Source: an uncultured Chloroflexia bacterium
GTDB taxonomy: Bacteria; Chloroflexota; Limnocylindria; Limnocylindrales; CSP1-4
DNA length: 64,000 nucleotides
NCBI GenBank assembly: GCA_963697415.1
Contig: CAVONW010000003.1
Span: forward strand, 2,106,706 to 2,170,705
Direction of reading: 5' to 3'
Shown: positions 1 through 54,362 of the stretch, in pieces
Position numbering within the stretch: position 1 is the first letter of the stretch
How the letters are laid out: the number at the start of each line of letters is the position of its first letter
Notes under the pieces: generated by a model
Told to the model about the DNA's origin: nothing
Seen by the model: the letters and a program-made list of their open reading frames with translations, nothing else
The model's database searches: none
Translations under genes and position numbers: made by a program

Positions 1-560
1 GACTCCAGCTCGGTGATGAGGATCGCTTCCTGTGCGCCTTCGAAGATCGCGGCGTAGCGGAGCTCGGACGCGACGACCGCTTCCTGCGTCCGTTTCTGAT
101 CCGTGATGTCCGCGATCGTGCCGAGCATCCGCACCGGTCGTCCGGACCTGTCGAACTCCAGCGCGCCGCGCCCGTGGACCCAGCGCTCCTCGCCGGTGTC
201 CGCGCGGAGGATCCGATACTGCTTGTCGAACGGCCGACCCTGGCCGAGCACCTCGTCAGTGAGGTAGGCGACCATCATGTCGCGGTCAGCCGGATGCACG
301 AGCGAGACCCAGCCATCTACCGACCGCTCGAACAAGGCACCGATGCCGAAGATCGCGTCCAGGCCGTTCGAGCTTACCCAACGGCCCGCGACGAGGTCGG
401 TTGAGTACGAACCGATCTGGGCGACCGACTCCACCTCGTCGAGTGGGCTGTCCCCGAACGGCGCGCTGTCACGCGGCACCCTCGCGGAGGCCGAGGTTGC
501 CGGGTGTGCCCGGCGCGTGCGTTTGCTGCTGTCGGTGGTGTCGATCTTGACTCGTGTCAT
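1..560 (-). CDS. PAS-domain sensor protein (partial; C-terminal part runs off the window start)
   Basis: Manual minus-strand translation from ATG at 560: MTRVKIDTTD...GSYSTDLVAGRWVSSNGLDAIFGI...VHPADRDMMVAY...GRPFDKQYRILRADTGEERWVHGRG..DRSGRPVRMLGTIADITDQKRTQEA, a classic PAS_3/PAS_9 signature. No stop occurs before position 1, which is why it is absent from the ORF track. Confidence 0.6.
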   Translation of the reverse strand, partial: MTRVKIDTTDSSKRTRRAHPATSASARVPRDSAPFGDSPLDEVESVAQIGSYSTDLVAGRWVSSNGLDAIFGIGALFERSVDGWVSLVHPADRDMMVAYLTDEVLGQGRPFDKQYRILRADTGEERWVHGRGALEFDRSGRPVRMLGTIADITDQKRTQEAVVASELRYAAIFEGAQEAILITELE

Positions 561-904
561 CTCGGTCGTCGGCTTCGTCCATGCTCGGCCTGGCGACTGC
601 ACGCACAGCTGCGGGGTGCATATCCCGTTCCGCAGATGCCCAGCGTCAGGCTCTGCCCACCGAGACCCATGCTCCGGGTGGCGATGAATCCGCTCAGGAT
701 CAGCGTCACCCCGAGCGGGTCACCCTGCCGGCTGAGGATGTCGCCCCTGTGAAAGGGCTGCACGATCGCCTGTGCAACGAGACGATCGCGAGTGTCCTGG
801 TGCACGTCGGGGAGGAAGCGCGTGAGCTCCGCGTGGAGCGTAGCGCCCAGCTCATGCACGAGGGGCCCCATCGCGACCGTGTGGCCAAGCGGCGACGATT
901 TCAT
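557..904 (-). CDS. small protein with cyclic-nucleotide-binding-like (Crp-type beta-roll) motif; ATGA-coupled to the downstream PAS gene
   Basis: 115-aa ORF. The segment FHRGDILSRQGDPLGVTLILSGFIATRSMGLGGQSLTLGICGTGY resembles the cNMP-binding fold pattern (G-D/E...G..hhhhsG.h.h.....G.e..l..h..Gd.fGe). Its stop overlaps the PAS start codon (ATGA at 557-560). High GC makes spurious ORFs common, so confidence is low. Confidence 0.3.
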   Translation of the reverse strand: MKSSPLGHTVAMGPLVHELGATLHAELTRFLPDVHQDTRDRLVAQAIVQPFHRGDILSRQGDPLGVTLILSGFIATRSMGLGGQSLTLGICGTGYAPRSCACSRQAEHGRSRRPR

Positions 905-23609: not shown

Positions 23610-25607
23610 ATGGCGACGCCGGCCATCCTCGAAGTAGCGGCTCACAGTCTCGCCGCGGTCCTGGGGATCTGGTTGGGTCTGACCGTCGTGACCCGCGCGG
23701 CATCTACCGCCTCGCGGGTCTTCGCGCTGCTCTCACTGTCGGTCGCGACGTGGAGCAGCAGCGTTATCGTGCAGCGCCTCTCGATATCGGCAGCCGCCGG
23801 CACGGCCGGCCACTTCATCGAAGAGCTCATGGCGGCCCTCGCGATTGCAGCCACGGCCCATTTCTCTCTGGCGATTGCGTCCGAGGGGTTCCCGACGACT
23901 GGTCGGCGCCGGGTGATCCTGGGCATCTACCTTGCGAACCTCGTGTTCGCTGCGCCGACGATCCTCAAGACGGTCACGGAGCCGCCCCAGCTGACATCCG
24001 AACCGCTGGTGGGGTCACTGTTCTTCTGGGGCTGGGTCGCCGTCCGGCTTGGTGCGCTCGCCACCGGAGCATTCTGGCTGGGACAGGCCTTGCGGGTGGC
24101 GTCGGCCGGCAGCCTGCGGAGTCGTCAACTCCGGGCCGCGCTTGCCACGGTCGCGACCGGGGGTGTCGGCGGAGCAATGCGGTTCATTCCGGTCATCGGC
24201 GACCTTGACGCCTGGATCGGAGTCTCACTCGTGGCCCTTGGCGTGGTGTTCGCGGCGTATGCGGTCTTCTCGGCGGGCATCTTCTTTGGGCCGGCGGTGG
24301 CGGGACGGGCATTCCGGTCGTCACTGGTCGGCGGGTTCGGCCTCTTCCTGGTGCTCGCCATGGTCCTCGGGGTTGAGACGGCGAGCCGCAATGCCACCGG
24401 CCTCGATCTGCCGGTCTTCACGGCGATGGCCCTGATCATGGCGGTCACGCTGCGTGACCCGGTATCCCGGCGACTCCGAGAGCGGCTGAGTGGCGATGGA
24501 CCGCGATCGGCCGCGCGCCGCCGTCTGCTCCTGGCGCTCGGCCAGCCGGGCTTGACCGCACATCCGGCCGAAGCCAGCGTCCTGCCTGCCCTTGACCGGC
24601 TCGCGCGAGCCCTCGATGTTGTCGGTCTCACGGTGGTCCGATCTGATGGCTCGATCGTCGCCACGGAGGGGCTGGGTGGGCGGCTCGGCGGGATCGAGCC
24701 GATTCCGCTCGTGTCGAACGGCGAGCTTCTCGGAGAGCTGAGAATCGGCGATACGGTCACCGGCGCTGCCCTCAGTGCCCACGACGAGGACCTGCTACGA
24801 ATGTCCGCCGCCTACGTCGCCGCTGCTCTCCGAACCGGTCGCCGTGAGGACGAGCAGATGGAACGGCTGGCCACCCTGGCCGCCGAGCGCGCCGCCGTCC
24901 AGTCCCAGGCTGAGACGCTCCACGCCGCCCTCCTCCAGCACGCCGATGCCCCGGCCGGGCTCCGCATCCATGCCCTCGGGCCGCTGCATGTCGAGCGCCT
25001 GGGTCAGTCGATCGAGCGCTGGGGTGGGGACAAGGCAGGCACGCGCCAGGCCCAGGGCCTGTTCGCCTTCCTGTTCGATCGGGGCGAGCGAGGCGTGACC
25101 AAGGACGAAGCGCTCGAGCTGATCTGGCCCGACACGGACATCGAGCGAGCTGACCTGGCCTTCCACCGGACCATGGTCGGCCTCCGCCAGACGCTGGATG
25201 CGCGCCGCGGCGGACGCACAAGCGGGACAATCCGCTTCCACAACGACCGGTATCGGCTGGACCCGGAGATCGTCGAGTGGTCGGATGTGCGGACGTTCCT
25301 GGCCCGGCTGGATGCCGCCAAGGCCGCGCCGGACGCGTCGGAGCGCCTCGCGCTCCTCGAGGAGGCGCGAGAGCTCTACCGCGGCGACTACATGGACGAC
25401 TGCCCGTTCTACGGCGACAGCGTCGAGGTCGAGGAACAGCGCGCGCATCTGCGAGCACGGGCCACGGACCTCCGCGTCGCGATCGGTGAGGCCTACGAGG
25501 CGTCGGGAGATCGGTTGTCCGCTGCCGCGGCCTTCCGGGAGGCGATTCGCGGCAACCCCGACGGATGCCCTCCGGCCGAGGCCGGCCTGGTTCGACTGGG
25601 GCTCTGA
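23610..25607 (+). CDS. membrane-anchored SARP-family regulator: N-terminal polytopic (about 7 TM) domain + central region + OmpR/PhoB-type winged helix + BTAD (bacterial transcriptional activation) domain
   Basis: About 250 aa of hydrophobic helices come first. Then ..LRIHALGPLHVERLGQSIERWGGDKAGTRQAQGLFAFLFDRGERGVTKDEALELIWPD.. is a SARP wHTH. Then ..WSDVRTFLARLDAAKA...LLEEARELYRGDYMDDCPFYGDSVEVEEQRAHLRARATDLRVAIGEAYEASGDRLSAAAAFREAI is the BTAD/TPR-like domain. Confidence 0.7.
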   Translation: MATPAILEVAAHSLAAVLGIWLGLTVVTRAASTASRVFALLSLSVATWSSSVIVQRLSISAAAGTAGHFIEELMAALAIAATAHFSLAIASEGFPTTGRRRVILGIYLANLVFAAPTILKTVTEPPQLTSEPLVGSLFFWGWVAVRLGALATGAFWLGQALRVASAGSLRSRQLRAALATVATGGVGGAMRFIPVIGDLDAWIGVSLVALGVVFAAYAVFSAGIFFGPAVAGRAFRSSLVGGFGLFLVLAMVLGVETASRNATGLDLPVFTAMALIMAVTLRDPVSRRLRERLSGDGPRSAARRRLLLALGQPGLTAHPAEASVLPALDRLARALDVVGLTVVRSDGSIVATEGLGGRLGGIEPIPLVSNGELLGELRIGDTVTGAALSAHDEDLLRMSAAYVAAALRTGRREDEQMERLATLAAERAAVQSQAETLHAALLQHADAPAGLRIHALGPLHVERLGQSIERWGGDKAGTRQAQGLFAFLFDRGERGVTKDEALELIWPDTDIERADLAFHRTMVGLRQTLDARRGGRTSGTIRFHNDRYRLDPEIVEWSDVRTFLARLDAAKAAPDASERLALLEEARELYRGDYMDDCPFYGDSVEVEEQRAHLRARATDLRVAIGEAYEASGDRLSAAAAFREAIRGNPDGCPPAEAGLVRLGL

Positions 25608-36176: not shown

Positions 36177-37106
36177 ATGGCGAGCGAGGAACGCATCCCG
36201 CCCGACGGCGGCGAGCCGAACCCGGATCCCGAGACGGGCGCCGACCCTCCCCACGTCGTGATCCTGAGCGGGCTGTCCGGTGGCGGCAAGACCGCGGCCG
36301 CCAAGCTGTTTGAGGACCTCAACTACGTCGTCGTCGACAACCTGCCGGGCGAGCTCCTGGCGAACCTGGCTGATCTGGTCTCGGCAGACCGGACGCGCTA
36401 CGCCCGCGTAGCCATCGTGCTCGATGTGCGGGCCGGTGACGCGGAGACGGCGTACCGGGCGATGCGCGGCGCGCTCGAGGGGCGGGGGATCCGGCCGCAG
36501 GTCTTCTTCCTCGAGGCTCGGGATGATGTTCTGATCCGGCGCTTCTCCGAGACCCGCCATCGACACCCTCTTGGCGAAGGCCGTGGCGTCGCCGCCGCGA
36601 TCGCCGACGAACGAGTCCTCCTGGATCCGGTCCGGGCCGAGTCAGACGTCGTCCTCGATACGTCGGATCTCTCGCTCCGCGAGCTGCGTGAGCGCCTCTT
36701 CGTACGCGTCAGCGGTCTCGTGCCGGACACGATGGCGATCCAGCTGATCAGCTTCGGGTTCAAGTTCGGCGTGCCCCTCGAGGCGGATCTCGTGTTCGAT
36801 GCGCGGTTCCTCCGCAATCCGTACTACATCCCCGAGCTGCGCGACCACTCCGGGCTCACCGAGCCGGTCCGGGACTATGTCCTGGGCCAGCCGGCCACAA
36901 GTCGTTTCCTCGATCTCCTCAAGCCACTCCTCGCGTTCTCGATCCCGGCCTTCAAGGAAGAGGGCAAGAGCCGCCTGACCATCGCGATCGGCTGCACCGG
37001 CGGTCAGCACCGATCGATCGTGCTGGTCGAGGAGCTCGCGACCTGGCTTCGATCAGCAGGCCATGAACCGGTGGGCGTGTTCCACCGCGAGCTGGAGCGC
37101 CGATGA
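36177..37106 (+). CDS. rapZ: RNase adapter / nucleotide-binding protein RapZ (YvcJ)
   Basis: VVILSGLSGGGKTAAAKLFEDLNYVVVDNLP.., and C-terminal ..IAIGCTGGQHRSI. The ORF-track entry 35502..37106 is an artefactual 5' extension through tatC. Confidence 0.85.
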   Translation: MASEERIPPDGGEPNPDPETGADPPHVVILSGLSGGGKTAAAKLFEDLNYVVVDNLPGELLANLADLVSADRTRYARVAIVLDVRAGDAETAYRAMRGALEGRGIRPQVFFLEARDDVLIRRFSETRHRHPLGEGRGVAAAIADERVLLDPVRAESDVVLDTSDLSLRELRERLFVRVSGLVPDTMAIQLISFGFKFGVPLEADLVFDARFLRNPYYIPELRDHSGLTEPVRDYVLGQPATSRFLDLLKPLLAFSIPAFKEEGKSRLTIAIGCTGGQHRSIVLVEELATWLRSAGHEPVGVFHRELERR

Positions 37107-38449
37107 ACCTGCGCCGCTGGCTGACGCCCGGGATCGGGATCAAGCGGTGGCTCGGCGTCGTATTCCTGGGCCTGCTCCTCCTCGCCCTCGCCGTCGCGCA
37201 CGTCGTTCGACAGGTCAGCGCGGGGCTCCAGCCCGGTGGGCCGGTGGGCGCCGTCATCGATGCCGCGACCCTCCAGTTCCTGCCGTACGCCCTGCGCGGG
37301 CTCATCGTCGGGGTACTGGGTGCTGGCTTGGTGGTGATCGGTGGCGTGCGAGTGGTGCGGGCGGTCACGGAGCCGCTGCGCGCGGCGCACGAGGAGCAAC
37401 CCCTGGTCGAGGTCATCTACCAGAAGCGGTTCCTCGCGCGCGGTCCGCGGATCGTGGCCATCGGCGGCGGAACCGGGCTGTCGGCGTTCCTCCGGGGGAT
37501 GAAGGAACACACGAGCAACCTCACCGCCATCGTGACCGTCGCCGACGATGGCGGATCGTCGGGCGCTCTCCGGACGGACCTCGGCATTCCGCCGGTCGGC
37601 GACATCCGAAACTGCATCGCCGCCCTGGCCGACGCCGAACCACTCATGCGGGACCTCCTCGGCTACCGCTTCCCCGCCGGTCAGCCGGACGACCTGCCGC
37701 CGGCCGACACCGTACCCGGTGGCCTTGGTGGCCACGCGATCGGGAACCTGCTGATCGCCGCGCTGACGGCGGTCCAGGGCGGGGACTTCGAGGAGGGTGT
37801 CCGCCGGATGAACCGCGTGCTCGCGGTGCGCGGTCAGGTCCTCCCTGTCTCGCCGACGCCGATCACGCTCCACGCCCGGACCACGAATGGGGTGGTCGTG
37901 TCCGGCCAGTCCAACGTCATGCGCACCGCGGGGATCGAGCGCGTCTGGATCACTCCGGCAGACGTCGCGCCGGCCACTGACGCCCTCGCGGCGATCGCCG
38001 AAGCCGACGTCATCGTCCTGGGTCCGGGCAGCCTGTTCACGAGCCTGCTGCCGGCACTCCTGGTGCCGGGGATCGGCGCCGCAGTTGCCGCGGCGTCCGC
38101 TGTGCGGGTCTACATCTGCAATGTCGCGACGCAGGCCGGCGAGACCGCCGGATACGACCTGGCGGACCACGTGGATGCACTTGCCGCCCATACGAACCCC
38201 GGCCTCGTGGACGTCGTGCTGGCCAATGACCAATTCGATGCTCGCGTGCCCGAACAATGGGTGGCCGAATCGGTCCGGCTTCGGTGGCCCCCGGCGGGCT
38301 CTCGGGCCCCGATTCTCGTCACCGAGGACATCGTCGATCACGGGAATGCCCATCGTCACGATCCGGAACGCCTGGCCGGTGCGGTCCTCCGTATCGCGGA
38401 GCGCGAACTGGCGGCGCGGCGTCGGGCCGGCGCGTCCCGGACGGCCTGA
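37103..38449 (+). CDS. YvcK/CuvA-family (UPF0052, CofD-like) gluconeogenesis/cell-wall factor with N-terminal membrane-anchor extension
   Basis: ..RIVAIGGGTGLSAFLRGMKEHTSNLTAIVTVADDGGSSG.. The first 100 aa or so contain two hydrophobic helices (WLGVVFLGLLLLALAV; LIVGVLGAGLVVIGGV). ATGA overlap with rapZ. Confidence 0.8.
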   Translation: MNLRRWLTPGIGIKRWLGVVFLGLLLLALAVAHVVRQVSAGLQPGGPVGAVIDAATLQFLPYALRGLIVGVLGAGLVVIGGVRVVRAVTEPLRAAHEEQPLVEVIYQKRFLARGPRIVAIGGGTGLSAFLRGMKEHTSNLTAIVTVADDGGSSGALRTDLGIPPVGDIRNCIAALADAEPLMRDLLGYRFPAGQPDDLPPADTVPGGLGGHAIGNLLIAALTAVQGGDFEEGVRRMNRVLAVRGQVLPVSPTPITLHARTTNGVVVSGQSNVMRTAGIERVWITPADVAPATDALAAIAEADVIVLGPGSLFTSLLPALLVPGIGAAVAAASAVRVYICNVATQAGETAGYDLADHVDALAAHTNPGLVDVVLANDQFDARVPEQWVAESVRLRWPPAGSRAPILVTEDIVDHGNAHRHDPERLAGAVLRIAERELAARRRAGASRTA

Positions 38450-38466
38450 AGGGCGACTGGGGCTCG

Positions 38467-39261
38467 GTGAGCACCGCCGACCGGGATCTCGTGGCTGCGA
38501 TGAGGGCAGAGCTTGCCTCGATCGACCCGGCCCGGGCCTGTGACCTCGCCGCGGAGTTGGCCGGCCTCGGGTCGACGCACCGCGCCGCCGACTCCGCGCG
38601 GGACCCCGTCCTGGCCCGCCTCGCGGTTCGACTCGCGCGGCGCGGATCGGCCACGGCCAACGGCTCGTTCGATTGGACGGGCTCGCCGGATCATTGTCGA
38701 ATGGCCTACCTCCGCGGGCTGTTCCTGGCTCGCGGGTCGCTCAGCGTCGCCGGAGCCCGCACCCACCTGGAGTTCGTGGTTGAGGTGGACGAAGCCCCGG
38801 TGCTCGCGGCGTGGCTGGCTAGCGCGGACATGCCCGGCTCGTGGCGCGTCCGGAGAGGTCGTGGCGTCGTGACCTGGAAGAGCGGCGAGACCGTTGGCTA
38901 CTTTCTCCGACGGATCGGGGCCGGAGCGGCGTTGCTGGAACTCGAGGCGCGCCAGGTGTCTCGGACGCTGCGCGGTGAGCTGAACAGGATCCTGAATGCC
39001 GAGTCGTCCAACCTCCAGCGGTCCGTGGCAGCGGCCGGCCGTCAGCTCGCGGCCATCGATCAGCTGCTGGAGGACGGGCGCATGGCAGAGCAGCCGTACG
39101 TGGTTCGGGTCGTGGCGGACGCCCGCCTCGAGACACCGGAAGCGACGCTTGCCGAGTTGGCCGAGCGCCTCGGGTATCACCGGTCTGGTGTGCAGCGCGC
39201 GCTGGAGCGCGTCGAGCGGCTGGCCCTGCACGGCGAGGCCAAGCCCCGGCGTCTGGCATGA
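38467..39261 (+). CDS. whiA: WhiA-like sporulation/cell-division transcription factor (short, 264 aa)
   Basis: Sits in the conserved position after rapZ-yvcK. The C-terminal HTH (..LAELAERLGYHRSGVQRALERVERLA) and a LAGLIDADG-like core are present. N-terminal length is uncertain. Confidence 0.7.
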   Translation: MSTADRDLVAAMRAELASIDPARACDLAAELAGLGSTHRAADSARDPVLARLAVRLARRGSATANGSFDWTGSPDHCRMAYLRGLFLARGSLSVAGARTHLEFVVEVDEAPVLAAWLASADMPGSWRVRRGRGVVTWKSGETVGYFLRRIGAGAALLELEARQVSRTLRGELNRILNAESSNLQRSVAAAGRQLAAIDQLLEDGRMAEQPYVVRVVADARLETPEATLAELAERLGYHRSGVQRALERVERLALHGEAKPRRLA

Positions 39262-43822: not shown

Positions 43823-43909
43823 GCCGAGGTGGCGAAATTGGCAGACGCGCTAGCTTCAGGAGCTAGTGCCCGCAAGGGCGTATGGGTTCAAGTCCCTTCC
43901 TCGGTACCA
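43823..43909 (+). tRNA. tRNA-Leu(CAG), type II, CCA encoded
   Basis: GCCGAGGTGGCGAAATTGGCAGACGCGCTAGCTTCAGGAGCTAG...GGTACCA. Anticodon stem CTAGC/GCTAG, loop TTCAGGA. Confidence 0.9.
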
Positions 43910-43961
43910 CCTCCTCGGAACGCCCTCTCGGATCCTTCGACCACTCGGCGAAACACCTGAT

Positions 43962-44046
43962 GCCCAGGTGGCGGAATTGGTATACGCGTACGTTTGAGGG
44001 GCGTATGAGGCAACTCATCCGGGTTCAAGTCCCGGCCTGGGCACCA
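43962..44046 (+). tRNA. tRNA-Leu(GAG), type II, CCA encoded
   Basis: GCCCAGGTGGCGGAATTGGTATACGCGTACGTTTGAGGGGCGTA...CCTGGGCACCA. Anticodon loop TTGAGGG. Confidence 0.88.
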
Positions 44047-44110
44047 CTACCTTCTCCCTGATTGGCTCCTGGCTGTGCCGCGCCCAGATACGTCCGGTAG
44101 GCTGTGCCGC

Positions 44111-44187
44111 GGGCGGTTAGCTCAGCTGGTTAGAGCGCCTCGCTTACACCGAGGAAGTCACTGGTTCGAGTCCAGTACCGCCCACCA
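44111..44187 (+). tRNA. tRNA-Val(TAC), CCA encoded
   Basis: GGGCGGTTAGCTCAGCTGGTTAGAGCGCCTCGCTTACACCGAGG...TACCGCCCACCA. Confidence 0.9.
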
Positions 44188-46006: not shown

Positions 46007-46082
46007 GGTCCACCGGGCCGAGATAGCTCAGTTGGTAGAGCACGCGACTGAAAATCGCGGTGTCGCCAGTTCGATTCTGGCT
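46007..46082 (+). tRNA. tRNA-Phe(GAA), CCA encoded
   Basis: GCCGAGATAGCTCAGTTGGTAGAGCACGCGACTGAAAATCGCG...CTCGGCACCA. Confidence 0.9.
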
Positions 46083-46118
46083 CTCGGCACCAAGAACCGG
46101 TGTGCGCAGCAGCACCGA

Positions 46119-46194
46119 GCGGAAGTGGCTCAGTTGGTAGAGCATCACCTTGCCAAGGTGAGGGTCGCGGGTTCGAGTCCCGTCTTCCGCTCCA
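46119..46194 (+). tRNA. tRNA-Gly(GCC), CCA encoded
   Basis: GCGGAAGTGGCTCAGTTGGTAGAGCATCACCTTGCCAAGGTGA...TCTTCCGCTCCA. Confidence 0.9.
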
Positions 46195-46243
46195 TTTCTT
46201 TGCCCGCGAACCCGGGCTGGCCCACCTGGTCCGTCCGATCGGC

Positions 46244-46317
46244 TGCCCCTTGGTCTAGTGGTAGGACAGCGGACTTTGGATCCGTTGGGCGAGGTTCGAA
46301 TCCTCGAGGGGCAACCA
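46244..46317 (+). tRNA. tRNA-Gln(TTG), CCA encoded
   Basis: TGCCCCTTGGTCTAGTGGTAGGACAGCGGACTTTGGATCCGT...GAGGGGCAACCA. Confidence 0.85.
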
Positions 46318-46374
46318 CCTCCCGCGCGGCCCATCCGCACTGCCTATGGCACAATCCGCGGGCTGCGATCCCGA

Positions 46375-46451
46375 GGCGACGTGGTGAAGTGGCTTAACAC
46401 GGAGGTCTGCAAAACCTCTATTCACCGGTTCGAATCCGGTCGTCGCCTCCA
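46375..46451 (+). tRNA. tRNA-Cys(GCA), CCA encoded
   Basis: GGCGACGTGGTGAAGTGGCTTAACACGGAGGTCTGCAAAACCTC...CGTCGCCTCCA. Confidence 0.88.
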
Positions 46452-46534
46452 CGCTTCCCGGTCAGGCCGAGAGTGTTCGCCGGCCAGCCAGCGCCCGCAT
46501 CCCGGCTTCCGCTACGCTGGGCGGGCCGGAGTGG

Positions 46535-46617
46535 CGGAACGGCAGACGCAGCCGACTTAAAATCGGCGGCCCGCAAGGGCTTGAGGGTTCGACTCCCTCC
46601 TCCGGTACAGGTCTGCG
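46535..46617 (+). tRNA. tRNA-Leu(TAA), type II; 3' CCA NOT encoded (followed by CAG)
   Basis: GCCGGAGTGGCGGAACGGCAGACGCAGCCGACTTAAAATCGGC...CTCCGGTA. Anticodon loop CTTAAAA. Confidence 0.85.
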
Positions 46618-46661: not shown

Positions 46662-47885
46662 TCAGCTGCGCCCGAACAGTCCGCCCAGTCCCTTCGACTT
46701 GCGCTCGTTGGTCACGCTGCCATCGGGCAGGCCCGCGAGGCGTGCGGCGAGGCGTCGAAGCTGCTCCGCCGATGGTGAGCGGGGCGAGCCGTCAACGATC
46801 GGAACGCCTTCGTTGACGCTCTTGAGGAAGCCAAACGCGTCATACGGGATCGTGAGCGCGATGTGCCTCCCGAGCGCCTCTTCGATATCGCGCCGCCGGA
46901 GCAGTTCGCGGGCGAAGATCTCGTTCAGGACGTACGAGGTCTCGGCCGTGTGCGAGCTGCTGCCCTCGAGCATCTCACTGAGGGCATGGACAGCCTTGAG
47001 CGCCGGAAACTCGGGGGTCACGACGATGACGAGATCGGTTGCATGGGCGAGCGCCGCCTCGGCCCGAGAATCGAGCGCGGATCCGGCGTCGACGACGACG
47101 GTCTTGAACGCGGCCGAGGCCGTCGTCAGGAGCGTGACGATCGTCGCGTCGGAGACATAGCTCACGGCGTCCGGCGTGGCCGGCGCGCCGAGCACCATGA
47201 GTCCGGAGCCGTGGCGGTCCAGCGCTGACTGGAACAGCCCGGGATCCCGGAGTGTCACCTCGTCGCGGGCGAGTTGGGCCATGGTCGTCCGCGGCGTGAC
47301 GTTCAGGTGTGTTGCAACCTGGCCGAACTGGAAGTCCAGGTCCAGGATCGCGACCGAACCGGGCATCTGGCTGGCCAGCGAGGTCGCCACATTGACGGCA
47401 ACTGTTGTCGTGCCGACCCCACCCTTCGGCGAGAAGACCGTGATGATCTGGCGCAGGCTGCCATCCCGGATCGAAACGCCGGCATCGGCCGTCGATCCAT
47501 GGCCACGGCTGCGCTGGAGACGAAGCGCGAGCGCTTCCGCTCGGGCATCGAGTTCACGGGGATCAAACGGGCGAGCGACGACGTCATCGATTCCGGCCTC
47601 GAGGAGCTGGATCCGATCCTCGACGTCGTCCGTCTGGGTCACGCACAGGATCGGGAGATCCCTCAGGTGGTCCGAGGCGCGGATGGCATCGCCCGCGTCC
47701 ATGACGTCCTGGATCGGGCCGGCGAGATCGAGGATGACCACTTCGACGGTGCCGGGATCGGGACCAGCGGCGATCGCGGCGCTCACATCCGGTACGACGG
47801 TCGTCTCGAGGCCGGCTGCCTGGAGGGCCTCGGCGACAGTCAGGTCGCCGGTGTTGGAAATCAGGAGAAAGCGACTGCTGGGCAA
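46662..47885 (-). CDS. CpaE/TadZ/Ssd-like protein: N-terminal receiver(REC)-like domain + MinD/ParA-type ATPase with deviant Walker A (KGGVGTTT)
   Basis: N-terminal about 120 aa with a REC-like fold (..VVILDL..PILCVTQTDD..RIQLLEAGIDDVVARPFDPRELDARAEAL). Then IITVFSPKGGVGTTTVAVNVATSLA and ..LDLDFQFGQV.. typical of CpaE/TadZ. No other tad/cpa genes are nearby. Confidence 0.65.
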   Translation of the reverse strand: MPSSRFLLISNTGDLTVAEALQAAGLETTVVPDVSAAIAAGPDPGTVEVVILDLAGPIQDVMDAGDAIRASDHLRDLPILCVTQTDDVEDRIQLLEAGIDDVVARPFDPRELDARAEALALRLQRSRGHGSTADAGVSIRDGSLRQIITVFSPKGGVGTTTVAVNVATSLASQMPGSVAILDLDFQFGQVATHLNVTPRTTMAQLARDEVTLRDPGLFQSALDRHGSGLMVLGAPATPDAVSYVSDATIVTLLTTASAAFKTVVVDAGSALDSRAEAALAHATDLVIVVTPEFPALKAVHALSEMLEGSSSHTAETSYVLNEIFARELLRRRDIEEALGRHIALTIPYDAFGFLKSVNEGVPIVDGSPRSPSAEQLRRLAARLAGLPDGSVTNERKSKGLGGLFGRS

Positions 47886-48038
47886 GGGAGTTCCCTGTGG
47901 TCAAGGTCAGATCGAGGTCCACGCGCCTCGACGGCTGATGAGGATACATCGGGTACGCATGCTAGACTCCCGGTCGGCCTTTCGGTCCCGCGTCCGTTGA
48001 ACAGCGGGGCATACCCATTGGAAGGAGATTGACGGCCC

Positions 48039-48458
48039 ATGCGCCGATACGAACTCATGCTCGTGCTCCGTCCGGACGCGCCGGACGAGCGGATTGCCGC
48101 GATCGTGGATCGCACCACCCGCCAGATCACGGCGGACGGCGGCCACATCATCAAGGTCGCCCCGTGGGGGCGCCGCCGGCTCGCCTATCCCATCGATCGC
48201 CATCGGGAAGGCTCGTACCACATCGTGGTCTTCGAGGGAGCGGCAGGGACCATCGTCGAGCTGGAGCGCACCCTCCTCATCACCGAGGAAGTGCTCCGCC
48301 ACCTCGTGGTCCGCCAGGACAGGCCCACCAAGGCCACCCGGCCCGATGGTGCCGAGGATGACGACGATCTCCCGCCCGTCGAGGACGAGGACGACGATGA
48401 CGGGTCCGAACGGATCGATGAGTCCGAGAGCGATGCGGCCCCCGCCGCGATCGACTGA
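48039..48458 (+). CDS. rpsF: 30S ribosomal protein S6 (acidic C-terminal tail)
   Basis: MRRYELMLVLRPD...RLAYPI..G.YH. GGAAGGAG RBS. Confidence 0.92.
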   Translation: MRRYELMLVLRPDAPDERIAAIVDRTTRQITADGGHIIKVAPWGRRRLAYPIDRHREGSYHIVVFEGAAGTIVELERTLLITEEVLRHLVVRQDRPTKATRPDGAEDDDDLPPVEDEDDDDGSERIDESESDAAPAAID

Positions 48459-48470
48459 GAGGAGACCCCG

Positions 48471-48923
48471 ATGGCGCTTTGCAAGATCCAGATCATCGGC
48501 AACCTCGGTCGGGACCCCGAGCTTCGGTATACACCGAGCGGCCGTCCGGTTGCGACGTTCAGCGTCGCCGTCAACCAGGCCACGAAGAACCAGCAGACCA
48601 ATGAGTGGGTCGAGGCGACCGACTGGTTTCGGGTGAGCGTGTGGGGTGACCGCGCCGAGCGCGCCGCTGAGAGCCTGCGCAAGGGCAGCCGGGTCTTCGT
48701 CGACGGCCGGTTCCGGACCCGCGAGTACGAGACCAACGATGGCCGCAAGGGCATGTCCCTCGACGTCAGCGCGGATATGGTCATGGGCCTCGACAAGCGC
48801 GACCAGGAGGGCACCTTTGCCGGAGCTCCAGGTGGCGCGGCCGCACCCGGCGGCTCCCCGGGAGGTGCTCCCGGTGGTGGTGGCGGTTTTGACGACACCG
48901 AAATCGATGAACTCCCGTTCTGA
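48471..48923 (+). CDS. ssb: single-stranded DNA-binding protein
   Basis: OB fold (..IIGNLGRDPELRYTPSGRPVATFSVAVNQ..W..V..WG), Gly-rich linker, and acidic tip DDTEIDELPF. Confidence 0.92.
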   Translation: MALCKIQIIGNLGRDPELRYTPSGRPVATFSVAVNQATKNQQTNEWVEATDWFRVSVWGDRAERAAESLRKGSRVFVDGRFRTREYETNDGRKGMSLDVSADMVMGLDKRDQEGTFAGAPGGAAAPGGSPGGAPGGGGGFDDTEIDELPF

Positions 48924-48977
48924 TACCAACCTGACCATCCCGCGCCCAAATCGGGCGCCGCGAGGAGACTGAATTCC

Positions 48978-49244
48978 ATGCCCCCACCTCGTTCTCGCAA
49001 GCGCGACGACTCCTACCGTGACCGACGCCGACGCAAGGTCTGCTCGTTCTGTGCGGACAAGACCGTCCAGATCGACTACAAGGAGGTCAACCGCCTCCGG
49101 CGCTACCTCTCCGAGCGCGCGAAGATCGAACCGCGACGCAAGACAGGCACTTGCGCCGGGCACCAGCGCGAGTTGTCGGTCGCGCTCAAGCGCGCGCGCA
49201 TCGTCGCGCTCCTCCCGTACGCGCCGCAGCACCTGCGCCCCTGA
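48978..49244 (+). CDS. rpsR: 30S ribosomal protein S18
   Basis: ..[55 protein letters not shown]. Confidence 0.9.
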
Positions 49245-51643: not shown

Positions 51644-52630
51644 ATGCTCACCCAGAACACCCCCGCCTCGGCGTCAGCGCCGGCCAGCCCGGCCGCGGCC
51701 CCCGCCCTCGATGACCTCATCTGCTACTTCGAGGGCCAGTTCGTCCAGCAGCGGGATGCGAAGGTCGGCGTAATGACCCATGCGTTCATGTATGGGACGG
51801 CGGTGTTCGAGGGCATCCGGGCGTACTGGAATGCCGAGCAGGGGACTCTCCATGGGTTGTTCCTGCGCGAGCACATGGAGCGCATCCGGCGCAATGCCGG
51901 AATGCTGTTCATGGAGGGCCTGCCGAGCACGGACGAGCTGGTCGCGCTTGTCGTGGAGACAGCCGCCCGCAACGGCTTCCGAGAGGACGCCTACATCCGG
52001 CCATGCTTCTACAAGTCGTCGCGGGCGATCGGTGTGCGTCTCCATCACCTGGAGCACCAGCTCGTGATCTTCGCCGTCCCATTCGGGAACTACATCGATG
52101 TCGACACGGGCGTCCGGCTCATGACCTCGTCCTGGCGGCGGAACGCCGACGATGCCCTGCCGGCGCGCGGCAAGATCGTCGGCGGCTACGTCAACATGGC
52201 CTTCCAGAAGTCCGAGGCGGAGCTCAACGGCTTCGATGAGGCGCTGGTCCTGACGTCAGACGGCCACGCGTCCGAGGCGTCTGCGGCGAACATGTTCGTG
52301 ATCCGGGACGGGATTCTCCTGACGCCGCCCGTCAGCGACGACATCCTCGAGGGTGTGACCCGCAAGGCAATCCTCGAGCTCGCAGCGAGCCAGGGCCTGA
52401 CCGTCGAGATCCGCTCGATCGACCGCTCCGAAATCTACGTCGCCGACGAGATGTTCCTGTGCGGCACGGGAGTCCAGGTCTCGCCGGTCATCGAACTTGA
52501 CCACCGCCCGGTGGGTTCCGGGGAGGCCGGTCCGATCACCCGCCGGATCCGGGAGGCCTATTTCGATGCCGTTCGCGGGCGCACGCCGGCCTTCTCGCAC
52601 TGGGTGACGCCGATCCCCATCGGTGGCTGA
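51644..52630 (+). CDS. ilvE: branched-chain amino acid aminotransferase (class IV PLP aminotransferase)
   Basis: ..HAFMYGTAVFEGIRAY.., ..EASAANMFVIRDGILLTPP...ILEGVTRKAILELA.., and ..EMFLCGTGVQVSPV. GGAG RBS at 51631. Confidence 0.8.
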   Translation: MLTQNTPASASAPASPAAAPALDDLICYFEGQFVQQRDAKVGVMTHAFMYGTAVFEGIRAYWNAEQGTLHGLFLREHMERIRRNAGMLFMEGLPSTDELVALVVETAARNGFREDAYIRPCFYKSSRAIGVRLHHLEHQLVIFAVPFGNYIDVDTGVRLMTSSWRRNADDALPARGKIVGGYVNMAFQKSEAELNGFDEALVLTSDGHASEASAANMFVIRDGILLTPPVSDDILEGVTRKAILELAASQGLTVEIRSIDRSEIYVADEMFLCGTGVQVSPVIELDHRPVGSGEAGPITRRIREAYFDAVRGRTPAFSHWVTPIPIGG

Positions 52631-54362
52631 CACCGCCGAGACCTCTGATCCGGAGGCCGTTCGGGTTCCGCCGGATTCATCACGTGCCAGCGCTCCGGCG
52701 GTCGACAGCACGCCGATTCGCGCGCGGCCGTTCCAGCGCCTGTTGGAGGTCGTGCCCGGCACGGTCACCTGGGGCCTGATCGTCGCCTCGGTCGCCCTGT
52801 CATTCCGATGGCCCCAGATCGTCGCCTGGTTCGTGCTGACGTTTGACGTCTACTGGCTGTACAAGGCGGTGATGCTGACCAGCAGTGTCGTGGCGGCATT
52901 CACGATGATCCGCCGAAACATGGACGCAGACTGGCGGACACGCACCTTCGCGCTGCGTGACGTATCGGGCCGGATCGCCACCCTTGAAGCGCGCATCCCG
53001 GCGATCGAGCGTCGTGTCGAGGAACTCGCCAGCGCCGGTCAGGTGTCCGCAGCGAAAGGCGGCCGGCGTGAACTCGCCCGACTACGCGATGAGCGCAAGG
53101 ACCTCCTCCGGCTGCTTGCCCGGCGTGGCGAGGCGATCCCGAATCCAGACCGGCTGTGGCACGTCGCGCTCGTCCCCACGTACACCGAGCCGTACGAGAA
53201 GCTGTACGAGACGGTCCGCGCGCTCGCCGAGTCAGACTGGCCGTCGGATCGCTTGATGGTTGCGATCATCACCCGCGAGACCGACCAGGCCGGCCGCGCA
53301 AACGTGGCCAGGCTCCAGACGGTCTTCGCCGACCGCTTCCTCCACTTCTTCCATATCCTCGACCCACTGGAACCAGGGGTCGTGGTGGGCAAGAGCAGCG
53401 CCATGGCCTATGGCGGGCGGTGGTTGTATCGCGAGATGGTTCGCCTCGGCTTCAATCCGCGCGAGGTGATCGTCACAGACCTGGACTCGGACTACCGGGT
53501 CCATCGGCGCTACTTCGGCTACGTCAGCTGGGCGTTCCTCACGAATCCGGATCGCTTTCGCCGGCTGTACCAGCCGGTCCCGATGTTCCACAACAACCTG
53601 TGGGAGACGCCGCTGCCGGTGCGCCTCGTGGCGATCGGGGCTACCCACGTCCAGATGTGGCGGTCGCTCACACCGGAGAAGCTGGTCAGCTTCTCGTCCT
53701 ACTCAGTCAGCCTGCAGACCGTCCACGAGGTCGACTACTGGGCCACTGACGCGATCGCGGAGGACAGCCGCTTCTACTGGAAGTCGTTCTTCCGCTACAG
53801 CGGCGAGTTCCACTCGATCCCGCTGTTCATGCCGATCTACGGCGACGCGGTCCGGGCGCGCTCCTATCCCCGGTCTCTCATCCAGCAGTACACCCAGATC
53901 AGGCGCTGGGCCTGGGGTGTGACGGACATTCCGTACTACATCCGGAATGCCTTTGCGCACTCGGAGATCCCGCGGATGATCCGGATTCGCCGCCTGCTCG
54001 ATCTATGGCTGGATCACCTCAACTGGGCGATCGCGCCATTCGTGATCATCTTCGGGTCCAATCTGCCGCTCATCATCAATCCGGCTTTCGCCGAAACCAC
54101 GCTCGGACAGAACCTGCCGCTGTATGCGTCCTGGCTGCTGACGGGCGCATTCGCCTGCCTGGTGGTGCTCATGTACGTGGAGGAACGCCTGGCGCCCCCA
54201 CGGCCGGTCAGCTGGGGCCTCATGCACAACGTCGTCAGCCGTATTCAGTGGCTGCTGCTGCCGGTCGTGGGTCTCCTGTTCTCGAACCTGCCGGCGCTCG
54301 ACGCCCAGACTCGCCTGATGGCCGGCAAGTACCTGGAGTACCGGGTCACCGAGAAGGCCTGA
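52623..54362 (+). CDS. GT2-family processive glycosyltransferase-like membrane protein (cellulose-synthase-like; D,D,ED,QxxRW motifs)
   Basis: ..TDLDSDY.., ..AEDSRF.., and QQYTQIRRWAWG (QxxRW). N-terminal TM plus coiled-coil segment and C-terminal TM helices. Confidence 0.7.
   Translation: MADTAETSDPEAVRVPPDSSRASAPAVDSTPIRARPFQRLLEVVPGTVTWGLIVASVALSFRWPQIVAWFVLTFDVYWLYKAVMLTSSVVAAFTMIRRNMDADWRTRTFALRDVSGRIATLEARIPAIERRVEELASAGQVSAAKGGRRELARLRDERKDLLRLLARRGEAIPNPDRLWHVALVPTYTEPYEKLYETVRALAESDWPSDRLMVAIITRETDQAGRANVARLQTVFADRFLHFFHILDPLEPGVVVGKSSAMAYGGRWLYREMVRLGFNPREVIVTDLDSDYRVHRRYFGYVSWAFLTNPDRFRRLYQPVPMFHNNLWETPLPVRLVAIGATHVQMWRSLTPEKLVSFSSYSVSLQTVHEVDYWATDAIAEDSRFYWKSFFRYSGEFHSIPLFMPIYGDAVRARSYPRSLIQQYTQIRRWAWGVTDIPYYIRNAFAHSEIPRMIRIRRLLDLWLDHLNWAIAPFVIIFGSNLPLIINPAFAETTLGQNLPLYASWLLTGAFACLVVLMYVEERLAPPRPVSWGLMHNVVSRIQWLLLPVVGLLFSNLPALDAQTRLMAGKYLEYRVTEKA

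Follow-up and report, generated by a model that had tools for sequence, protein, structure and literature searches.

The question raised by this locus is what a protein resembling the CpaE/TadZ ATPases of tad pilus operons does when it is encoded away from any such operon. ParA/MinD-family ATPases organise many cargos, and most of the encoded copies are without a known cargo (PMC11407121). The gene in question occupies positions 46662..47885 on the minus strand of the 64-kb stretch of DNA that we analysed, hereafter the window. In the list of open reading frames it starts with TTG, ends with the stop codon at 46662-46664 and encodes 407 amino acids. Its GC3 of 0.82 is similar to that of the neighbouring genes, its end-to-end homologs are 405-407 amino acids long, and dN/dS between pairs of orthologs is 0.05-0.21. 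It is a real gene under purifying selection.

The sequence-only reading described the product as a receiver joined to a MinD/ParA-fold ATPase carrying KGGVGTTT, and both the translation and the Pfam matches bear this out. Response_reg matches residues 17-116 of the N-terminal half with 38.2 bits (cut-off 30.2), and AAA_31, ParA and CbiA match the ATPase half at residues 146-349. The receiver domain comprises residues 1-126 (47508..47885, minus strand, as for every part of the protein given below) and the MinD/ParA-fold ATPase domain of CpaE/TadZ type comprises residues 146-388 (46722..47450). The linker between them, residues 127-145 (47451..47507), is a variable block in sequence and length in the family alignment (alignment A1), and its residues 128-138 have pLDDT values below 50 in the AF2 model. 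[quoted passage not shown] Proteins of the CpaE/TadZ type (COG4963/K02282) are likewise about 400 amino acids long and combine a MinD/ParA-fold ATPase with an N-domain that resembles a receiver.

The kinship of the ATPase domain was assessed with a profile of the family and a comparison panel of tad-operon proteins, consisting of four plasmid proteins and the metagenomic protein P0181. The profile gave 149-152 bits with actinobacterial tad-operon CpaE, 111-119 bits with Burkholderia TadZ and 205 bits with P0181, which is the best match of the domain outside the family, as opposed to 65 bits with E. coli MinD and 12.5 bits with BcsQ. In a distance tree the family forms its own clade within the CpaE/TadZ radiation, separate from the tad-operon proteins. 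Profile scores and tree together place the ATPase domain in the CpaE/TadZ radiation, in agreement with the CpaE/TadZ-like ATPase that had been proposed. The other half of that proposal, a match to the mycobacterial septum-site protein Ssd (Rv3660c), did not survive: Ssd also has a CpaE-like ATPase domain, but TIGR03815 (CpaE_hom_Actino) scores 49 bits against its equivalog cut-off of 154.45. The septum-site role of Ssd is itself disputed (PMC10482377).

Other ATPases of the fold were considered and rejected. The MinD models TIGR01968 (69.2 bits, cut-off 212.9) and TIGR01969 (71.3 bits, cut-off 201.75) fall far short, and MinD differs in having a canonical KGGxGK[ST] motif and no receiver domain, where the window protein has a receiver and Thr159 in place of the second Lys. 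BcsQ, the cellulose-synthase localisation ATPase (PDB 6YBU/6YAR), lacks a receiver and has Arg as its signature Lys; TIGR03371 gives 44 bits (cut-off 158) and only the GGVGTTT segment aligns, at the 12.5 bits already mentioned. Because the similarity is confined to the P-loop, we reject kinship with BcsQ. Among solved structures, the Chlorobium tepidum ParA-family ATPase 3EA0, a structural-genomics entry, is a 245-residue chain that comprises the ATPase domain without a receiver and is 22-23% identical to the window protein. The Eubacterium rectale TadZ structure (PDB 3FKQ) is only 15% identical, ranks below the MinD, ParA, FleN and BcsQ structures and is absent from the 60 best sequence-profile matches.

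The ATP site is conserved in an unusual form. Residues K154, G155, G156, G158, T159, T161, D182, D184 and D266 are invariant in A1, and the invariant positions include the signature Lys, the Walker A' Asp pair and the Walker B Asp. The signature Lys154 is thus retained and Thr159 stands in the position of the P-loop Lys; among 75 orthologs with a readable motif this position is Thr in 73, Ala in two and Lys in none. The sequence-only reading had taken the GT variant to be as in the atypical TadZ ATPases, and this is correct for Burkholderia, whose tad-operon TadZ has the same Lys-to-Thr change in KGG[SA]GTS. It is not correct as a generality: since the actinobacterial and P0181-type tad-operon proteins retain KGGVGK[TS], and the unrelated BcsQ has GGVGTTT, the variant is not a hallmark of TadZ. 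According to the statement in PMC6668835 that cites Xu et al. 2012, TadZ is ATP-binding with low ATPase activity.

In the receiver, Asp53 (47727-47729) is at the position of CheY Asp57, and the N-domain thus keeps an Asp at the acceptor position; D57 is kept in 78 of 81 family members. The remainder of the pocket is eroded. At the CheY positions D12, D13, D57, T87 and K109 the window protein has S, N, D, T and R, the acidic pair being Ser10/Asn11 and the Lys109 position Arg105. Asp and Asn swap freely at position 13 across the family, Lys109 is kept by about half of it, and the canonical D/E-D-D-T/S-K quintet is found in none of the 81 members compared with 17 of 20 out-group proteins (described below). 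From these residues the receiver is atypical, with a degenerate catalytic pocket. The near invariance of Asp57 could mean that phosphorylation still matters. A block of invariant residues in A1, R91-R125, spans α4-β5-α5 in the AF2 model. In profile scores the domain matches the canonical receivers of PhoP (72 bits) and PleD (98 bits), the relative P0112 reaches 54.3 bits with Response_reg, and the scores with TadZ N-domains are no higher than 20 bits. The two-domain architecture claimed for the protein is correct, and both the Pfam match and the AF2 model give the N-domain a receiver fold, with the qualification that its sequence resembles canonical receivers far more than it does the N-domains of TadZ.

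The C-terminal tail is rich in Gly and disordered in the AF2 model, and its character is conserved in nearly all of 80 full-length orthologs. It aligns with the tails of Burkholderia TadZ and with the C-terminal end of E. coli MinD, the membrane-targeting sequence of that protein. The hydrophobic moment of the tail is unremarkable, and the targeting sequence of E. coli MinD does not stand out in this respect either. We regard the tail as a candidate membrane- or partner-binding peptide, with the membrane-binding role suggested by analogy.

The placement given for the gene, with a tRNA cluster on one side and the divergent rpsF-ssb-rpsR operon on the other, is correct. Five tRNA genes (Phe, Gly, Gln, Cys and Leu; 46017..46608, plus strand, identified with ARAGORN and Rfam) converge on its 3' end, and the rpsF-ssb-rpsR operon, recognised from its open reading frames and from the Pfam families found in relatives, is at 48039..49244 on the plus strand. 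The two flanks differ in their conservation. Downstream, the flank varies among relatives, the tRNA cluster is not conserved, and a search for a conserved gene or operon partner on that side found none. Upstream, rpsF-ssb-rpsR is divergent from the gene in every locus for which upstream DNA is available (about 78 genomes), and in 80 loci the gene and rpsF are 139-472 bp apart (median 194). The gene is monocistronic and fixed beside rpsF in this lineage. The synteny may simply reflect a stable block of genes, and a functional link to rpsF is putative.

The sequence-only reading also called the gene an orphan without flanking tad genes, and a wider search confirmed this. Pfam annotation of 41 further open reading frames of the window found housekeeping genes only, plus four frames without a Pfam match; there were no tad, cpa or flp genes in the 64 kb, and tblastn with Flp, CpaB, CpaF, TadB, TadC, TadE and TadG of a real tad operon gave no match in the window. 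With tad probes in the 10 kb on either side of 82 orthologous loci (1.36 Mb), none of the 82 gave a match. CpaE/TadZ proteins, by contrast, are typically encoded in the tad operon beside cpaF/tadA, and all five tad-operon comparators are directly upstream of cpaF. No gene for cell division, such as minC, minE or ftsZ, occurs among the Pfam-annotated frames of the window. Nor do these frames, or the 10 kb on either side of the gene at two orthologous loci (L001 and L002), contain a kinase or Hpt gene; the only PAS-domain frame of the window is 46 kb from the gene, at the window edge.

A search of genome contigs for the family gave 440 relatives of the window protein, of which the best 80 are all from metagenome-assembled genomes of Limnocylindrales type; going by these 80 of the 440, the subfamily is so far seen only in Limnocylindrales-type Chloroflexota. 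The next-best full-length matches are an out-group (P0171-P0204, 190-247 bits) from other Chloroflexota, such as Anaerolineales. These are canonical response-regulator/CpaE-type fusions of the same length and architecture, and many share the degenerate Walker A and the basic C-terminal tail. They differ in keeping the receiver quintet, where the pocket of the window family is degenerate, and in often being encoded as tandem pairs or beside a kinase or Hpt gene, where the window family is single-copy at its locus with no kinase near. Their relation to Tad is varied. P0181 is an out-group protein in a complete tad operon. None of P0191, P0180, P0171 and P0178 has a tad gene in the stretch of flank that was available; P0191, P0180 and P0178 adjoin a kinase or Hpt gene, which P0171 does not. 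The contig of P0172 carries a tad locus with its own receiver protein beside CpaF, and the orphan pair is apart from it.

The reading that we favour, though we would give it no better than an even chance, is that of a lineage-specific orphan ATPase of the CpaE/TadZ branch, fused to an atypical, degenerate receiver and working independently of a tad operon. The protein would bind ATP and form a nucleotide-sandwich dimer that hydrolyses slowly or not at all, like TadZ and BcsQ, and rather than oscillating fast this dimer would serve as a landmark or scaffold. The highly conserved α4-β5-α5 face of the receiver would be a dimerisation or partner-binding module, largely independent of phosphorylation, and the dimer would be anchored by its basic-hydrophobic tail, either at the membrane or on a partner. 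The protein would position or recruit a cargo encoded elsewhere, as a housekeeping function and not as part of a cis-encoded Tad pilus. A bolder elaboration, which we offer tentatively and which may well prove wrong, is that a TadZ-type scaffold ATPase became uncoupled from Tad pili and from an ancestral kinase and is now a housekeeping spatial organiser of Limnocylindrales-type Chloroflexota. It would be a pseudo-receiver-gated, membrane-tethered landmark for the machinery of cell division, polarity or the envelope, and would be expressed together with rpsF-ssb-rpsR, an operon linked to growth rate, from a divergent promoter region common to both.

An alternative that we consider unlikely is that the protein is a genuine TadZ/CpaE acting in trans, recruiting and localising Tad (Flp) machinery encoded elsewhere in the genome. 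The CpaE/TadZ-type ATPase domain would be expected of such a protein; involvement in the assembly of Tad at a distance is plausible because P0181, its best match outside the family, comes from a complete tad operon, and the Lys-to-Thr P-loop, the acceptor Asp and the LFGR-type tail are all common to the tad-operon TadZ of Burkholderia. In some bacteria, for example Bdellovibrio, tad genes are scattered across several loci (bioRxiv 10.64898/2026.07.08.737194). Against this, the complete absence of tad genes around the 82 orthologous loci is set against five of five tad-operon homologs upstream of cpaF, and the fixed position beside rpsF in every locus examined is unlike that of an accessory, often mobile tad module. 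Moreover, the tad locus on the P0172 contig already has a receiver protein of its own next to CpaF.

Replacement of MinD, with the protein acting as the ATPase that positions the division site or septum, is in our view improbable, even if a division-positioning role would be in keeping with the conserved housekeeping synteny. The score of 69 bits is far under the 213-bit MinD equivalog cut-off, the precedent of Ssd is weak, and no minC, minE, ftsZ or other division gene accompanies the gene among the annotated surrounding frames. The window protein also lacks the P-loop Lys, and MinD needs ATP hydrolysis in order to cycle. We give still less credence to a true two-component response regulator, in which an unlinked kinase would phosphorylate Asp53 and thereby shift the ATPase between monomer and dimer. 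In its favour are a Response_reg match above the Pfam cut-off, an Asp57 kept in nearly all members and a Lys109 kept in about half, and the nearest out-group proteins, which have the full quintet, are often beside histidine kinase or Hpt genes. It sits poorly with the lack of the canonical quintet in every family member, with the Ser-Asn that replaces the metal-binding acidic pair and the Arg that replaces Lys109 in the window protein, with the interchange of Asp and Asn at position 13, and with the absence of a kinase or Hpt gene from the annotated window frames and from the 10-kb flanks of L001 and L002.

The window protein represents a clade within the TadZ branch that is strongly conserved, has parted from the pilus operon and is so far seen only in the Limnocylindrales-type lineage, and its nearest relatives are a larger, unstudied Chloroflexota set of response-regulator/TadZ-type fusions wired to kinases. 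If the tad-independent orphan that we favour is indeed what it is, then TadZ-type scaffolds would be positioning modules of general use and not confined to pili, and the protein would offer a first way into the cell organisation of a soil and freshwater lineage that is abundant and uncultured. A search for publications about pili, Min or FtsZ in Limnocylindria/Ellin6529 returned nothing relevant. Members of the family carry the JGI label 'pilus assembly protein CpaE', and this automatic label is probably an over-annotation.

The region through which any co-expression with rpsF would act is the 153-bp divergent intergenic region at 47886..48038, shared between the gene and rpsF. A search around the gene for a sigma-70 consensus match and an intrinsic terminator found neither, and the intergenic region matches no Rfam family. 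The rpsF side holds the rpsF promoter and leader. On the side of the gene there are a TATCCTCA block, conserved in an alignment of 18 loci, and in the 5' UTR a weak GC hairpin of four pairs (-2.35 kcal/mol).

The open reading frame at 46662-47885 on the minus strand, which starts at a TTG codon and encodes 407 aa, is a real gene. Its GC3 of 0.82 is on par with that of neighbouring genes, homologs of 405-407 aa cover it from end to end, and dN/dS between pairs of orthologs is 0.05-0.21. Pfam places Response_reg at residues 17-116 (38.2 bits against a cut-off of 30.2) and AAA_31/ParA/CbiA at residues 146-349, and the P-loop reads SPKGGVGTTT. The receiver plus ATPase architecture with a deviant Walker A motif, as noticed in an earlier sequence-only reading, is therefore confirmed. 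The exact protein (P0001) is carried by a 2.57-Mb contig. Its 120 best matches are about 405 aa long and 45-100% identical, and the few with a named source derive from MAGs of Chloroflexota or Candidatus Limnocylindrales and bear the JGI label "pilus assembly protein CpaE". When one genome per species was scanned, 440 relatives came up; among the 80 highest-scoring, nearly all carry a Chloroflexota or Limnocylindrales label. Across 1.84 billion representatives, searched exhaustively, the scores show a step between the family proper, above approximately 285 bits, and a lower group of full-length proteins (about 400 aa) at 190-247 bits.

We class the protein as an orphan, lineage-specific variant of the CpaE/TadZ branch, rather than as TadZ proper. 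It passes no NCBIfam model. For the ATPase domain the CpaE/TadZ-like description holds, as judged with a profile built from that domain of the family and a panel of Arthrobacter, Pseudarthrobacter, Paraburkholderia and Burkholderia proteins, each encoded directly upstream of cpaF-tadB-tadC. The metagenomic tad-operon protein P0181 scored 205 bits, the Arthrobacter and Pseudarthrobacter CpaE proteins 149-152 bits and the Paraburkholderia and Burkholderia TadZ proteins 111-119 bits, versus 65 bits for E. coli MinD and 12.5 bits for BcsQ. The likeness to Ssd does not extend to membership (TIGR03815, 49 bits against a cut-off of 154), and BcsQ scored 44 bits against 158. Membership of MinD was also rejected (minD_arch, 71 bits against 202; minD_bact, 69 against 213). 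We do not file the protein as TadZ proper because the genomic hallmark of CpaE/TadZ, a place within a tad operon, was looked for and not found: with tblastn probes from a genuine tad operon, no Flp, CpaB, CpaF, TadB, TadC, TadE or TadG match was detected in the 64-kb window, in line with the sequence-only reading, and across 1.36 Mb of orthologous loci the sole match was the gene itself.

The gene lies between a five-gene tRNA cluster (Phe-Gly-Gln-Cys-Leu, 46017-46608, plus strand) at its 3' end and the rpsF-ssb-rpsR operon, which begins 153 bp upstream on the opposite strand. Divergent rpsF-ssb-rpsR is found in every orthologous locus with upstream sequence (approximately 78 of 82), across a spacer of 139-472 bp (median 194), and is followed in most loci by TauE, DUF1634, Na/Ca exchanger and class-IV aminotransferase genes. 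The other flank differs among loci. In 56 of 71 loci the downstream neighbour lies on the other strand, and most downstream genes are unrelated between loci; the gene is therefore monocistronic and marks the border of a synteny block. The remaining window genes are housekeeping genes (dnaE, polA, fpg, uvrABC, a uvrD-like helicase, secDF, recJ, tatAC, cofD/yvcK, whiA, pgm, a family-5 solute-binding protein, lemA, htpX, ileS, lspA, gmk and others).

A profile of the family N-domain recognizes the canonical receivers PleD (98 bits) and PhoP (72 bits), versus 20 bits or less for TadZ N-domains. Alignment to CheY and PhoB from an annotated E. coli genome shows that the window protein carries Ser and Asn at CheY positions D12/D13, Asp57, Thr87 and Arg in place of Lys109. 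The phospho-acceptor Asp57 is thus kept, as it is in 78 of 81 family members; position 109 is Arg in 42 and Lys in 38. The full receiver quintet is present in none of the 81, in contrast to 17 of the 20 nearest out-group proteins, which are receiver/CpaE-type ATPase fusions. The most conserved receiver surface is R91-R125, corresponding to alpha4-beta5-alpha5, the dimerisation face of OmpR/PhoB receivers. Conventional phospho-chemistry has probably been largely lost from a domain that would still act as an interaction or dimerisation module.

The named sources of the out-group are Chloroflexota or Anaerolineales. P0181, with a canonical Walker A, is encoded within a complete operon (flp, tadV, tadE, tad, rcpC, P0181, cpaF, tadB, tadC), and P0171 belongs to a tandem receiver-ATPase pair. 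A gene for a cNMP-binding histidine kinase comes after that for P0191, P0180 adjoins an Hpt plus PAS kinase, the tandem pair of P0178 is followed by an Hpt/HATPase protein, and the P0172 pair, with Hpt, points away from a tad locus in which CpaF is accompanied by a separate receiver protein. The radiation thus includes Tad-independent, kinase-linked members, and the family of the window protein looks like a derivative that has shed the kinase link and the catalytic pocket. Two tandem receiver plus CpaE-type ATPase genes, often accompanied by an Hpt or HATPase_c protein, recur in other Chloroflexota (loci L090, L097 and L098 and the P0172 contig); the module has the look of a so far undescribed pair of MinD-like ATPases coupled to a phosphorelay.

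Invariant in the family alignment are the signature Lys154, Gly155/156/158, Thr159/161, Asp182/184 (Walker A') and Asp266 (Walker B). Where MinD has its P-loop Lys, at position 159, 73 of the 75 orthologs with a readable motif have Thr and 2 have Ala; none has Lys. The parallel with atypical TadZ ATPases drawn earlier is valid but not diagnostic of TadZ, because Burkholderia tad-operon TadZ proteins share the Lys-to-Thr change (KGG[SA]GTS) but so does solved BcsQ, with an identical GGVGTTT core, whereas the actinobacterial tad-operon proteins and P0181 retain the Lys. The closest solved structure, PDB 3EA0 from Chlorobium tepidum, likewise lacks the P-loop Lys (KGGDGGS); it is an uncharacterised structural-genomics "ParA family ATPase". 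TadZ reportedly binds ATP but has low ATPase activity (PMC6668835, citing Xu et al. 2012), and a Lys elsewhere in a TadZ protein is said to compensate for the P-loop Lys (PMC11407121, PMC10482377). By analogy, the family protein would therefore undergo nucleotide-dependent dimerisation with slow or absent hydrolysis. The last 14 or so residues, ERKSKGLGGLFGRS, are predicted to be disordered, and orthologs keep their character (a basic cluster followed by Gly, by Phe or Leu and by further basic residues). The tail aligns with LFGR-type tails of Burkholderia TadZ and with the C-terminal end of E. coli MinD, its membrane-targeting sequence; many out-group proteins have basic amphipathic C-terminal stretches. 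The hydrophobic moment of the tail is unremarkable, and the E. coli MinD targeting sequence is not distinguished by this measure either. The tail may by analogy bind membrane or a partner.

As the most likely mechanism, held at about even odds, we propose a scaffold with an atypical receiver: the ATP-bound protein would dimerise and hydrolyse slowly, the tail would tether it, and it would act on cargo encoded away from the locus. The main alternative, a trans-acting TadZ serving a tad locus elsewhere in the genome, is possible but distinctly less probable. A division-site role, as the sequence-only reading had suggested, is unlikely, with scores far short of the MinD cut-offs. True phospho-regulation, with Asp57 retained and the quintet incomplete, is the least likely. 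Orphan ParA/MinD-type ATPases are common, and the interest of this one is modest; the conservation of its clade in every sampled genome, fixed synteny and descent from kinase-linked fusions nevertheless recommend it for study.

The rpsF 5' leader (47950-48041, plus strand) spans approximately 90 nt from a TAGACT box to the start codon. It is almost invariant in 18 Limnocylindrales-type loci although the proteins are only 55-100% identical. In its consensus fold a 5' CUCC pairs with the GGAG Shine-Dalgarno sequence, and an internal hairpin varies at the apex with self-complementarity kept (GTCC/GGAC, GTCGA/TCGAC, GCATG/CATGT). No Rfam family matched the leader even at E <= 10. The stretch is a candidate leader for autoregulation by ribosomal proteins (S6:S18?). 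In the region at about 47900-47935, read on the strand of the ATPase gene, a conserved TATCCTCA block is possibly that gene's -10 element, back-to-back with the rpsF promoter; a promoter scan of the region found no sigma-70 consensus. A short GC-rich CCGGC/GCCGG hairpin, weak at four pairs and -2.35 kcal/mol, follows at a fixed position in the presumed 5' UTR.

The Phe-Gly-Gln-Cys-Leu cluster and a Leu-Leu-Val cluster (43823-44187, plus strand) enclose lemA and htpX. This flank is rearranged in relatives, as in orthologous locus L002 with an inserted GGDEF gene and a WapI-domain gene, and the tRNA clusters may thus sit at a boundary prone to recombination. A cofD/yvcK-whiA cluster (37103-39261, plus strand) lies roughly 8 kb from the ATPase gene, and in orthologous locus L001 (18907-21242) it is preceded by a RapZ-like gene; in Firmicutes and Actinobacteria such genes have ties to the control of division and of the cell envelope. 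The only signalling-type gene among the annotated window ORFs, 46 kb away, is a PAS-domain ORF (3-719, minus strand) that runs off the left window edge and is possibly part of a sensor kinase. ORFs at 23610-25607 (665 aa) and 52623-54362 (579 aa), both on the plus strand with coding-type GC3, have no match in Pfam; many relatives keep the latter in the corresponding place, flanked by the aminotransferase gene and a LytR-family gene.
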